From: Escherichia coli
GTDB taxonomy: Bacteria; Pseudomonadota; Gammaproteobacteria; Enterobacterales; Enterobacteriaceae
Reading direction: 5' to 3' (one strand)
NCBI RefSeq assembly: GCF_050920415.1
Contig: NZ_CP169309.1
Length of the DNA: 64,000 nt
Shown: positions 33,369 through 51,839 of the stretch, in pieces
Layout: each line of letters opens with the position of its first letter
Numbering within the stretch: position 1 is the stretch's first letter
Translations under genes and position numbers: made by a program
The notes under the pieces: model-generated
Told to the model about the DNA's origin: nothing
What the model saw: only the letters and a program-made list of their open reading frames with translations
Databases searched by the model: none

Positions 33369-33443
33369 GCTGCCCGTAATTTGAGCTCGAAATATTTAGT
33401 CGTAATTTCACTCGCTGAACTATGGCGCAAATTAAACTGTGCT

Positions 33444-33466
33444 ATTGTAATCATAACCATTCTCAT
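33444..33466 (+). promoter_or_regulatory. candidate Fur box upstream of bfd-bfr
   Basis: ttgtaatcataaccattctcatt: AT-rich hexamer repeats resembling GATAAT-type Fur sites. Confidence 0.35.
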
Positions 33467-33500
33467 TTACACTTTGCGCAGAATTTGAACGGGAGCAATC

Positions 33501-33695
33501 ATGTACGTTTGTTTGTGTAATGGTGTAAGTGACAAAAAAATTCGCCAGGCAGTCCGTCAGTTTCATCCGCAATCTTTCCAACAATTGCGTAAGTTTATTC
33601 CTGTGGGAAATCAATGCGGTAAGTGCATTCGCGCCGCGCGCGAAGTGATGCAGGACGAGTTGATGCAGATGCCAGAATTTAAAGAGATTGCCTGA
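33501..33695 (+). CDS. bfd: bacterioferritin-associated ferredoxin
   Basis: 64-aa ORF with Cys motif CLCNGVS...CGKC. Confidence 0.95.
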   Translation: MYVCLCNGVSDKKIRQAVRQFHPQSFQQLRKFIPVGNQCGKCIRAAREVMQDELMQMPEFKEIA

Positions 33696-33767
33696 AGCCC
33701 ACGCTTATTTTTTGACATCCCGCTAGCCCCATCTACGCTCTAATAGTGGAAGCGGAGGGACTATAAA

Positions 33768-34244
33768 ATGAAAGGTGATGTTAAAATCATAAATTATCTC
33801 AATAAACTATTGGGAAATGAGCTTGTCGCAATCAATCAGTATTTTCTCCATGCCCGGATGTTTAAAAACTGGGGCCTGATGCGTCTCAATGACGTCGAAT
33901 ACCATGAATCTATTGATGAGATGAAACACGCTGATAAATATATCGAGCGTATTTTGTTTTTAGAAGGAATCCCTAACTTACAGGATTTAGGCAAACTGGG
34001 GATTGGTGAAGATGTCGAGGAGATGCTGCAATCCGACCTGCGATTAGAACTGGAAGGCGCGAAGGATCTCCGTGAGGCTATCGCGTATGCCGACAGCGTT
34101 CATGACTATGTTAGCCGTGATATGATGATCGAGATCCTTGCCGATGAAGAAGGTCATATTGACTGGCTCGAAACTGAGCTGGATCTCATCGGTAAAATCG
34201 GTTTACAAAATTACCTGCAATCACAAATAAAAGTTAAAGATTAA
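33768..34244 (+). CDS. bfr: bacterioferritin
   Basis: 158-aa ferritin-like ORF. Confidence 0.97.
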
Positions 34245-34708
34245 CGGCCTGCCAGCAAACTATCCCAGCCTACAACGAAACCCGCAGCCGCCAGAAATGG
34301 CCCAAACGGCAGCGGGTTTTTTAATGACTCTTTTCCTCTCATGAGCAGACCAATAACTACGGCTCCGCAAGCGAATGAGGCAGCAAGGAAAACCAGTCGT
34401 GGCAAGAAGGTCCATGTATGCCAGGCACCAAGGGCGGCGAGAAACTTCACATCACCATAGCCTAATCCTTCTTTATGACGCAGTATGCGATACCCCCAGT
34501 AAATGACAGCGAATGTGCCGTAACCAATAATCGCCCCCCATAACGCATCGGCTAAACCGTCAGGATTACAAATCTGATAGAACAAAAGACCTGACCAGAG
34601 TAACGGGCACGTAAATCTGTCAGGTAACAAGCCATGATTTGCATCCCAGAAAAAAAGTAGGGCTGATAAACAAGCGTACAAAATCAGAAAGGGAAGGGTA
34701 GTGTCCAT
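34241..34708 (-). CDS. hopD: N-terminally short type IV prepilin (leader) peptidase homologue
   Basis: 155-aa membrane ORF with prepilin-peptidase motifs (HGLLPD...PLLW; [19 protein letters not shown]); stop overlaps bfr stop by 4 nt. Confidence 0.75.
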
Positions 34709-34881
34709 AAAACATCCTCTGTAATTGGAGTATCACCATCGAATAACTGCGGATGCTCAGCAACAGAGAAATCGCTGATTTGTTAACCTGATTCCGGTGA
34801 AAAACGCTATCTTCACAACCTTACAAATTTCGTGGAATGCAGCTCGCAATCTGCGCGTTGCGATTAATTTCTACCCGATGC

Positions 34882-34909
34882 TTGCGTCAGGCTCAGATTT
34901 GCGTATAAT
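34882..34909 (+). promoter_or_regulatory. S10 operon promoter
   Basis: TTGCGT (34882-34887), 16-bp spacer, TATAAT (34904-34909). Confidence 0.6.
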
Positions 34910-48847: not shown

Positions 48848-49216
48848 ATGTGGTTACTTGACCAGTGGGCAGAGCGTCATATTACTGAGGCACAATCCAA
48901 AGGTGAGTTTGATAATCTTCCGGGAAGTGGCGAGCCATTGATTCTGGATGATGATTCACACGTGCCACCGGAATTACGTGCGGGGTATCGCTTGCTGAAG
49001 AATGCCGGTTGCTTACCGCCAGAACTTGAGCAGCGGAGGGAAGCAATACAGCTTCTGGATATCCTCAAAGGTATCTGTCACGATGATCCGCAATATCAAG
49101 AGGTTAGTCGTCGATTGTCATTACTGGAGTTAAAGCTGCGACAAGCAGGATTGAGTACCGATTTTTTACGCGGCGATTATGCTGACAAGTTGTTGAATAA
49201 AATCAATGATAACTAG
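48848..49216 (+). CDS. yhdN: DUF1992 protein YhdN
   Basis: 122-aa ORF upstream of zntR. Confidence 0.85.
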   Translation: MWLLDQWAERHITEAQSKGEFDNLPGSGEPLILDDDSHVPPELRAGYRLLKNAGCLPPELEQRREAIQLLDILKGICHDDPQYQEVSRRLSLLELKLRQAGLSTDFLRGDYADKLLNKINDN

Positions 49217-49226
49217 TGGAGTATGT

Positions 49227-49652
49227 ATGTATCGCATTGGTGAGCTGGCAAAAATGGCGGAAGTAACACCCGACACAATACGTTATTACGAAAAGCAGCA
49301 GATGATGGAGCATGAAGTACGTACCGAAGGTGGGTTTCGCCTGTATACCGAAAGCGATCTCCAGCGATTGAAATTTATCCGCCATGCCAGACAACTTGGT
49401 TTCAGTCTGGAGTCGATCCGCGAGTTGCTGTCGATCCGTATCGATCCTGAGCACCATACCTGTCAGGAGTCAAAAGGCATTGTGCAGGAAAGATTGCAGG
49501 AAGTCGAAGCACGGATAGCCGAGTTGCAGAGTATGCAGCGTTCCCTCCAACGCCTTAACGATGCCTGTTGTGGGACCGCCCATAGCAGTGTTTATTGCTC
49601 GATTCTTGAAGCTCTTGAACAAGGGGCGAGTGGCGTTAAGAGTGACTGTTGA
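49227..49652 (+). CDS. zntR: Zn(II)-responsive MerR-family regulator
   Basis: 141-aa product MYRIGELAKMAEVTPDTIRYYEKQ... with C-terminal Cys/His metal site; track start over-extended. Confidence 0.95.
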   Translation: MYRIGELAKMAEVTPDTIRYYEKQQMMEHEVRTEGGFRLYTESDLQRLKFIRHARQLGFSLESIRELLSIRIDPEHHTCQESKGIVQERLQEVEARIAELQSMQRSLQRLNDACCGTAHSSVYCSILEALEQGASGVKSDC

Positions 49653-49707
49653 TTTTTTACACTGGCAGGATTACACTCGCGCCGTTAAATAACCAATTGG
49701 AGTTTTT

Positions 49708-49926
49708 ATGAGCCGATATCAGCATACTAAAGGACAGATAAAAGATAATGCGATTGAAGCATTGCTACATGATCCTTTATTCCGACAGCGTGTAGAGAAA
49801 AATAAGAAGGGGAAAGGTAGTTACATGCGAAAAGGAAAACATGGCAATCGGGGAAACTGGGAGGCCAGTGGCAAGAACGTAAATCACTTTTTTACCACTG
49901 GCCTTCTGCTTTCAGGGGCTTTTTAA
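49708..49926 (+). CDS. arfA: alternative ribosome-rescue factor A
   Basis: 72-aa [47 protein letters not shown]... Confidence 0.9.
49863..49903 (+). promoter_or_regulatory. arfA 3' coding-region hairpin (RNase III / non-stop regulation site)
   Basis: ggccagtgg-N23-ccactggcc inverted repeat inside arfA 3' end. Confidence 0.6.
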
Positions 49927-50333
49927 GAGCGGTTATTCTGCTCTTTCAGCAAATCACGGATCTCGGTCAGTAATACTTCTTCTTTAGTTGGTGCAGGTGC
50001 AGCTGCTGGTTCTTCTTTTTTCCGATTCAGTTTATTGATTAGCTTAATCGCCATAAAGATGGCAAAGGCCACAATCAGAAAATCAAAGACGTTTTGAATG
50101 AAGACACCGTAATGCATAACGACTGCTGGGATATCCCCTTGCGCATCGCGTAGCGTGACAGCAAACTGTTTAAAGTCGATCCCACCAATTAATAAACCCA
50201 GCGGCGGCATGATGATATCTGCAACCAGTGAAGAGACAATCTTACCGAAGGCCGCACCGATAATGACACCCACTGCCAAATCCACCACATTTCCGCGCAT
50301 TGCAAATTCGCGAAATTCTTTAATAATGCTCAT
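49923..50333 (-). CDS. mscL: large-conductance mechanosensitive channel
   Basis: 136-aa ORF; stop overlaps arfA stop by 4 nt. Confidence 0.97.
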
Positions 50334-50462
50334 GTTATTCTCCCTATAAAGCCGACAATCATAAGTCTAACAAATGTTAAGCTATTTTCCTGCCGGGAAT
50401 GAATTTAATTAATCCTTGAAAAAAAAAGGGAAATAATAAGGCGCCAGAAGACGCCTTATTAA

Positions 50463-51839
50463 TTACAAGAAGAAAGGACTTGGCTGGAAGAGACGTTCGA
50501 CGTCGGTAATAAACTTTTTGTCCGTCAGGAACATAATTACATGATCGCCTTGCTCAATACGCAGATTGTCATTGGCAATCATCACATCATTGCCGCGTAC
50601 TACAGCACCAATAATCGTTCCTGGTGGTAGCTTGATTTCATCAATGACTCTGCCCACAACGCGTGAGGTGCTTTCATCACCGTGAGCAACAGCTTCAATA
50701 GCTTCTGCAACACCGCGGCGCAATGAGGAAACACCAACAATATCGGCTTTTCGCACGTGACTAAGCAACGCAGAAATAGTTGCTTGTTGTGGTGAAATCG
50801 CAATATCGATCACGCTCCCCTGAACCAGATCCACATAAGCGCGACGCTGGATCAATACCATCACCTTTTTCGCACCCATACGTTTGGCAAGCATGGCGGA
50901 CATGATATTGGCTTCGTCATCGTTGGTGACGGCAATAAACAGATCAACTTGATCGATATGTTCTTCGGCTAGCAGTTCTTGATCCGACGCATCACCAAAA
51001 AAGACGATCGTATTCTGCAACTTTTCCGCCAGTTCGGCAGCGCGCTGCTGATTACGTTCGATGAGTTTAACGCTGTAATCTTTTTCCAGACGACGCGCCA
51101 GCCCTGCACCGATATTACCGCCGCCAACCAGCATGATCCGCTTATACGGTTTTTCCAGACGTTGCAATTCACTCATCACCGCGCGGATGTGTTGCGAAGC
51201 GGCAATAAAGAACACTTCATCACCAGCTTCAACAATGGTCGAACCTTGCGGACGAATAGGGCGATCGTGGCGGAAAATGGCTGCCACACGAGTATCGATA
51301 TGCGGCATATGTTCGCGCATGGTCGAAAGTGCATTACCAATCAGTGGGCCGCCATAATAGGCTTTAACCACAGCCAGGCTGACTTTACCCTCAGCGAAGT
51401 TCACTACCTGCAGCGCGCCGGGATACTCAATCAGTCGGTAAATATTATCGATAACCAGCTGCTCTGGTGCGATCAGATGATCAATCGGTACAGCATCTGA
51501 ATGAAATAGCTTATCGGCATCGCGCACGTAGTCTGGTGAGCGGATACGAGCGATGCGATTAGGGGTGTTGAAAAGTGAGTAGGCTACCTGGCAGGCAACC
51601 ATATTGGTTTCATCTGAACTGGTTACAGCAACCAGCATATCGGCGTCGTCGGCACCTGCCTCCCGCAATACGCGTGGATGAGAGCCATGCCCCTGCACGA
51701 CCCGCAGGTCAAATTTATCCTGCAAGGTCCGCAGACGCTCACCGTTGGTATCGACAACAGTAATATCGTTGTTCTCGCCAACCAGGTTTTCCGCCAGTGT
51801 GCCGCCAACCTGGCCGGCACCCAGAATGATAATTTTCAT
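50463..51839 (-). CDS. trkA: Trk potassium uptake system NAD-binding protein
   Basis: 458-aa ORF with two Rossmann folds (IILGAGQVG; MLVGGGNIG). Confidence 0.97.

Follow-up and report, generated by a model that had tools for sequence, protein, structure and literature searches.

The window (the whole stretch of 64,000 nucleotides that was analysed) derives from an Escherichia coli chromosome and carries the gene order zntR–arfA–mscL–trkA at 49.2–51.8 kb, in which the small arfA gene converges on mscL (Table 1). The product of the arfA ORF matched the Pfam family PF03889 over amino acids 4–45 with 89.5 bits against a cut-off of 25.5 (E = 9e-26), and a Pfam match for a MerR-type regulator was also present in the region. 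Over the 801 bases around arfA–mscL, two complete E. coli chromosomes were 100% identical and RefSeq lists the same genes at the same coordinates, naming arfA as such in a genome that is 100% identical at the locus. A K-12-like genome showed the same arrangement at about 95% identity, with an ungapped alignment to arfA. The ArfA translation contains both A18, the residue whose replacement in the A18T variant causes loss of activity (PMC8012679), and the motif K34-G-K-G-S-Y39, which was found in all 82 arfA loci that were fetched for comparison. No consensus sigma-70 site was found upstream of arfA by a promoter scan.

The best 120 protein matches to ArfA 1–55 came from close enterobacterial relatives only. 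Among the matches listed, many gene calls of 83–96 aa (clusters P0002–P0028) are 100% identical to ArfA 1–55, and these probably reflect start codons placed too far upstream, in the zntR–arfA spacer. Also among the matches listed, cluster P0001 represents a form of 55 aa, which is as long as mature ArfA 1–55, and is 98% identical to the query. A contig of 383 bp (NZ_CACSJJ010000125.1) from an assembly labelled Arthrobacter sp. 18067 carries a Raoultella-like arfA together with the mscL end, and is probably enterobacterial contamination of that assembly.

Local import was considered as the cause of the approximately 5% divergence of arfA from typical E. coli, and was rejected since identity to K-12 is 93–97% throughout the non-ribosomal part of the window; the ribosomal-protein operons (about 35–48.5 kb) are about 100% identical to the K-12-like genome. 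Judged by these identities, the window is part of a divergent E. coli lineage, and identity of at least 99% over 49600–50400 was seen in only 4 of 5,425 complete E. coli genomes. Elsewhere in the window, the tufA–rpsJ interval (33371–34902) measures about 1.5 kb, versus about 19.8 kb in the K-12-like strain JME64, where it holds gspA–O, bfr, bfd and apparently engineered genes. Positions 33444–34228 match bfr–bfd at 77% identity only, and this interval of the window seems to lack the gsp type II secretion cluster.

Table 1. Genes, RNA structures and putative processing sites at the arfA–mscL locus (positions in the window; strand ".", feature read on both strands)
Feature	Position	Strand	Remarks and basis
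zntR	ORF listed 49206-49652; RefSeq start 49227	+	ORF list
arfA ORF	49708-49926	+	72 aa; alternative ribosome-rescue factor A; ORF list, Pfam PF03889, RefSeq annotation
Complete arfA 3′-coding stem-loop	49853-49913	+	arfA nt 146-206, 61 nt; RNAfold, inverted repeat, published interval (PMC10070815)
Basal helix, 4 bp	49853-56 / 49910-13	+	RNAfold
5′ arm of 14-bp core helix	49858-49871	+	Contains GGCCAGTGG at 49863-49871; encodes W51-E-A-S-G55
C.A 1x1 internal loop	49872 / 49894	+	RNAfold; conserved
Putative 5′ RNase III cut	49872/49873	+	After arfA nt 165, last base of Gly55 codon; figure text of PMC10070815 plus alignment
Apical stem-loop	49873-49893	+	5+2-bp stem, 5-nt loop; private C at 49878
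3′ arm of 14-bp core helix	49895-49908	+	Contains CCACTGGCC at 49895-49903; encodes T63-T-G-L-L67
Putative 3′ RNase III cut	49896/49897	+	After arfA nt 189; would release small RNAs of ~24 nt and ~30 nt; figure text of PMC10070815 plus alignment
Putative mscL 3′ UTR (+1 to +64)	49859-49922	-	Extent from PMC10070815; antisense to arfA 3′ coding region
TTAA shared by arfA and mscL ORFs	49923-49926	.	arfA stop TAA 49924-26 (+), mscL stop TAA 49923-25 (-)
mscL	49923-50333	-	136 aa; large-conductance mechanosensitive channel, convergent with arfA; Pfam PF01741 E = 2e-47, RefSeq
trkA	50463-51839	-	ORF list

A sequence-only reading of this DNA had pointed to an inverted repeat with a 9-bp stem at 49863–49903 within the 3′ coding region of arfA. 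This repeat proved exact, with GGCCAGTGG pairing with CCACTGGCC over 9 bp and an A–U pair (49862/49904) extending it to a perfect 10-bp stem, and it forms the core of a longer stem-loop of 61 nt. Folding of the region indeed yielded a stable hairpin at 49853–49913, with a minimum free energy of –28.9 kcal/mol versus –12.6 ± 2.8 in dinucleotide shuffles (z = –5.9; none of 200 shuffles as stable). RNAfold predicts helices of 4, 14, 5 and 2 bp, interrupted by single-nucleotide mismatches or bulges and adding up to 25 pairs, versus 26 in K-12. Substrates of E. coli RNase III offer some two helical turns, or at least about 20 bp, of double-stranded RNA, a length that the 25 predicted pairs satisfy. 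The stem-loop spans codons 49–69 of the 72, and thus lies downstream of the end of the Pfam domain (aa 45) and upstream of the stop codon.

Around two perfect 10-bp inverted repeats are expected by chance in 64 kb, so that the arfA repeat might be supposed to be a functionless accident. With loops of 3–40 nt, the window contains ten such repeats versus about 1.9 in first-order Markov random sequence, meaning that they are some five times commoner here than in random sequence, yet rare. A chance origin is nevertheless excluded by the conservation data: besides the folding energy (z = –5.9) and the published biochemistry, which supports function, the hairpin occurs in every one of the 80 species, its synonymous sites being frozen.

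The nine other perfect 10-bp repeats (at 2972, 18068, 20207, 25572, 26865, 33343, 40066, 48754 and 50434) are for the most part probably intrinsic terminators between operons. A terminator-like hairpin of 12 bp with a T-run behind it is located directly beyond trkA on the minus strand (50461–50434), and overlaps a sub-threshold Rfam match to the Salmonella sRNA STnc350 on the plus strand (50403–50464 region; 21.5 bits versus a gathering score of 60, E = 0.57). For the arfA hairpin itself, an Rfam scan of 49000–51000 at E ≤ 1 returned no family, only two sub-threshold chance matches elsewhere, and the element appears to be uncurated in Rfam 15.

The conservation of the hairpin was examined in 80 Enterobacteriaceae species loci, obtained from a genome scan with ArfA. 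The hairpin region aligned without gaps in all 80, each sequence adopted the same fold, and the RNAalifold consensus was this same structure. Standard pairs filled 91.7% of the cells of the alignment under this structure, versus 43–64% when the 3′ partners were slid by 1–3 columns. The apical closing pair 49880/49886 covaries in a compensatory manner between C–G (45 species) and U–A (30 species). Across the 80 species the 13–14-bp core is invariant or shows only G–C to G.U exchanges; because of this invariance, the pairing of the core rests on its energy and on frozen synonymous sites rather than on covariation.

These frozen sites stand out against the remainder of the gene. In codons 4–48, which encode the functional domain, synonymous variation is seen at each of the 34 conserved degenerate codons (mean codon entropy of 1.17 bits, none restricted to a single codon), whereas codons 52–55 (GAG GCC AGT GGC) and 62–66 (TTT ACC ACT GGC CTT) are essentially frozen, seven of the nine using a single codon. 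This contrast is a clean signature of selection at the nucleotide level, which we read as acting on hairpin codons 52–55 and 62–66, and it is an addition that the comparative data make to the published picture. Downstream of codon 66 the tails diverge in sequence and length between species; in the present strain, a hydrophobic C-terminal tail is encoded after the putative cut.

As summarised in PMC10070815 (citing Garza-Sanchez 2011 and Chadani 2011), the RNase III stem-loop of E. coli arfA comprises nt 146–206 and is cut at nt 165 and nt 189, and in vitro products of nt 166–189 (about 24 nt) and of nt 190 to the stop (about 30 nt) have been described (Morra et al. 2023, PMC10070815). We transferred the cut coordinates from the text to Figures 4B and 5D of that paper through the ungapped K-12 alignment, taking 49708 as arfA nt 1. 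The published interval is identical to that of the stem-loop found here, and no mapping that places the cleavage at another site was found. Both transferred cuts sit at the top of the core helix, by the conserved C.A internal loop. The upstream product of the 5′ cut would then be a non-stop mRNA for ArfA 1–55, and the closing of codon 55 by this cut agrees with the 53–55 aa reported for active ArfA (PMC8012679, PMC3989591, PMC8327144). The same truncation mechanism is given in these reviews (PMC8012679, PMC3989591, PMC8327144), and RNase III cleavage products of the E. coli element were shown in vitro with the K-12 allele only (PMC10070815).

The hairpin of this strain deviates from that of K-12 by three substitutions among its 61 nucleotides, none of them at the cut sites. 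The first (49854, A here versus G in K-12) lies in the basal helix, while the second (49902, C here versus T in K-12) turns a G.U pair of the core into G–C and is the majority state, found in 77 of 80 species. The third (49878, C here versus A in K-12, corresponding to K57N) introduces a C.U mismatch into the apical stem. This C is unique among the 80 species representatives, being absent from the other 79, and is likewise absent from E. coli strains that are 99.3%, 97.3% and 95.0% identical over the locus. It removes one apical A–U pair at a cost of about 4 kcal/mol (–28.9 versus –33.1 in the closest relative), and the net stability of the hairpin is –28.9 kcal/mol here versus –29.9 in K-12.

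The claim that the element is intact thus stands for the core helix and the cut sites, whereas the apical stem carries this private A-to-C change and its C.U mismatch. The substituted position, 49878, sits five nucleotides above the putative 5′ cut, and neither the core helix nor either cut site is altered; moreover, alignment column 30/44, two positions from the mismatch, is unpaired in 37 of the 80 species. The hairpin of this strain would therefore be expected to function despite the mismatch. The substitution might have a measurable effect on the processing of arfA or the regulation of mscL.

A non-stop arfA mRNA could also arise if the hairpin acted mainly as an intragenic transcription terminator, with termination instead of RNase III generating the truncated message. 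Such termination is the mechanism reported for arfA of Neisseria gonorrhoeae and has been proposed in reviews as a contributing route in E. coli, and the plus strand is U-rich after the core helix (CUUCUGCUUUC). A terminator scan moreover picked up a small terminator-like site at 49903–49918, followed by CTTTTT, but this consists of a weak stem of 6 bp in competition with the main helix for its 3′ arm, and the scan as a whole gave three matches versus 1.1 expected from shuffles. The main hairpin was not called on either strand, in a scan that admits loops of 3–8 nt without mismatches and that an imperfect long hairpin could escape. Since RNase III cleavage products of the E. coli element have been demonstrated in vitro (PMC10070815), we regard termination as the principal mechanism as highly unlikely. 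Termination at the hairpin may rather be a contributing route than an exclusive alternative, because a non-stop mRNA results either way.

The stop codons of arfA and mscL had also been noted to overlap by 4 nt on opposite strands, and this overlap is present as the shared TTAA, with RefSeq annotating it both in the 100%-identical genome and in the K-12-like genome. Its place in the mechanism was assessed in 83 sequences, namely the 82 fetched loci and the window. In all 83, mscL is convergent with and abuts arfA, but the arfA ORF ranges from 68 to 94 aa across Enterobacteriaceae and the position of its stop is not conserved. The overlap with mscL is 0 nt in 36 of the 83 sequences, 4 nt in 23, 6 nt in one, 26–27 nt in nine, 33 nt in two, 47 nt in five and 65 nt in seven; Salmonella arfA, for instance, encodes 89 aa and overlaps mscL by 65 nt. 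The arfA stop hence drifts relative to the hairpin and the mscL stop, which keep their register, as would be expected if the natural stop is rarely reached, and this drift of the stop and of the overlap (0–65 nt), which fits a rarely used stop, is a second small addition from the comparison.

A functional role of the 4-nt overlap in RNase III/tmRNA control was accordingly rejected, since the overlap is not conserved, and the comparative data mark it as incidental to the RNase III mechanism and as the standard E. coli/Citrobacter state. The suggestion that the locus matches a known arrangement is upheld for the type of element, a hairpin for RNase III in a Pfam-supported ArfA gene over the same interval as in K-12, and falls for the stop overlap, which is not a part of the mechanism. 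[quoted passage not shown]

The mscL 3′ UTR (+1 to +64) extends as far as the hairpin and is cleaved in vitro by RNase III, and mscL mRNA is made less stable by arfA fragments, which serve as antisense RNA (PMC10070815). In the window, the minus-strand mirror of the hairpin is predicted to fold with –25.2 kcal/mol (z = –4.7). One alternative is that the palindrome is primarily an mscL element, serving as 3′-end hairpin or terminator and as RNase III site, and that its location in arfA is secondary, arfA having been extended into the mscL 3′ region. The stable minus-strand fold and the in vitro cleavage of the mscL 3′ UTR would agree with such an origin, as would the near-fixed distance of the convergent mscL stop from the hairpin base in the 83 sequences, in which the arfA stop moves, and an absolutely invariant core would be compatible with a constraint on two strands.

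The plus-strand fold is, however, more stable than the minus-strand one, three G.U pairs becoming non-pairing C.A on the minus strand, and in E. coli, ArfA expression is altered when the stem-loop is removed or recoded, in constructs described in PMC10070815, which cites the primary work. Furthermore, arfA genes located away from mscL are reported with a 3′ hairpin and hydrophobic tail, such as PA3990 of P. aeruginosa (PMC13159725), and Pseudomonadaceae are placed in the "distal" cluster (PMC10070815). Judged from the literature, a palindrome that is mainly an mscL element is thus very improbable indeed; both transcripts likely make use of it, and this dual use may explain why the core is absolutely invariant.

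In the 80 species the hairpin core (GGGAGGCCAGUGG / CCACUGGCCUUC) does not vary at any position, synonymous sites included, and shows no covariation. Compensatory changes would be allowed if only pairing mattered, and the invariance may therefore reflect a sequence-specific constraint beyond the RNase III site of arfA. Selection on both transcripts at once, through the arfA cleavage site, the 3′-end hairpin of mscL and the duplex between arfA sRNA and mscL, is one candidate for this constraint, and a sequence-specific binding partner may be another. The combined proposition, in which the core is under such an extra constraint and the A-to-C change at 49878 in addition shifts arfA processing or mscL regulation, is offered only tentatively and is on balance doubtful.

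Our preferred reading, held with high confidence, is that the element is the autoregulatory stem-loop of E. coli arfA and that it serves the truncation mechanism as published, where RNase III cleavage, tagging, the recruitment of RF2 and the antisense action are taken over from the literature. The sequence holds nothing that speaks against this reading. By this mechanism, arfA would be transcribed from its own promoter, and the 61-nt stem-loop in codons 49–69 would fold into double-stranded RNA of about 25 bp. RNase III would cut both arms (after nt 165 and nt 189), whereby the last 17 codons and the stop would be lost, and ribosomes on the 5′ arfA product would reach its 3′ end and stall. When tmRNA–SmpB is available, the nascent ArfA would be tagged for proteolysis and the mRNA degraded, while untagged ArfA 1–55 would accumulate when trans-translation is saturated or absent, recruiting RF2 so that ribosomes stalled on non-stop mRNAs are released. 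Any full-length ArfA of 72 aa would carry the hydrophobic tail and be unstable. On the other strand, the same palindrome would form the hairpin of the mscL 3′ UTR, and since this shared palindrome is read in opposite directions, arfA fragments released by RNase III would be antisense to mscL mRNA.

In E. coli, the tmRNA gene ssrA maps elsewhere on the chromosome. As expected from this, no tmRNA gene was found within the 64-kb window.

The arfA element is already known, and so are the sites at which it is cleaved, the way it is regulated and its antisense tie to mscL. Because publications on the element and its mechanism go back to 2011 and reviews cover them, its recognition here carries little weight as a discovery. 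Its value is that of a positive control, in that a real, functional and unannotated RNA element was recognised from the letters alone at its exact coordinates.

Among known systems, the intragenic terminator of N. gonorrhoeae arfA (Schaub et al. 2012, as presented in PMC8327144) is similar in having a 3′ hairpin within the ORF and a tmRNA-controlled non-stop mRNA. It differs in that, in the same account, its hairpin terminates transcription and is without an RNase III site, whereas in the window the terminator scan, within its limits of 3–8-nt loops and no mismatches, called no canonical U-tract terminator at the main hairpin, and a helix of about 25 bp matches an E. coli RNase III substrate. 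The antisense module of the mscL 3′ UTR and arfA (Morra et al. 2023, PMC10070815) shares with the window the tail-to-tail genes and an arfA hairpin that is fully complementary to the approximately 64 nt past the mscL stop; a minus-strand hairpin is predicted here too, and no structural difference was seen. E. coli is assigned there to the "proximal" class, in which the genes do not overlap, in contrast to the 4-nt ORF overlap found here and in the RefSeq annotation of the K-12-like genome, a discrepancy that is probably one of annotation and not of biology.

The closest counterpart is the RNase III stem-loop of K-12 arfA (yhdL), an element for tmRNA-controlled non-stop mRNA known from Garza-Sanchez et al. 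2011, Chadani et al. 2011 and Schaub et al. 2012, as cited in later papers. Both loci have the same zntR–arfA–mscL–trkA neighbours, a 72-aa ORF that differs in its last residue (F72 here, C72 in K-12), a stem-loop over nt 146–206 and the TTAA overlap. Within an ungapped alignment, the sequence at both published cut sites (nt 165 and nt 189) is identical, and the 14-bp core helix is the same but for the one G.U to G–C change.
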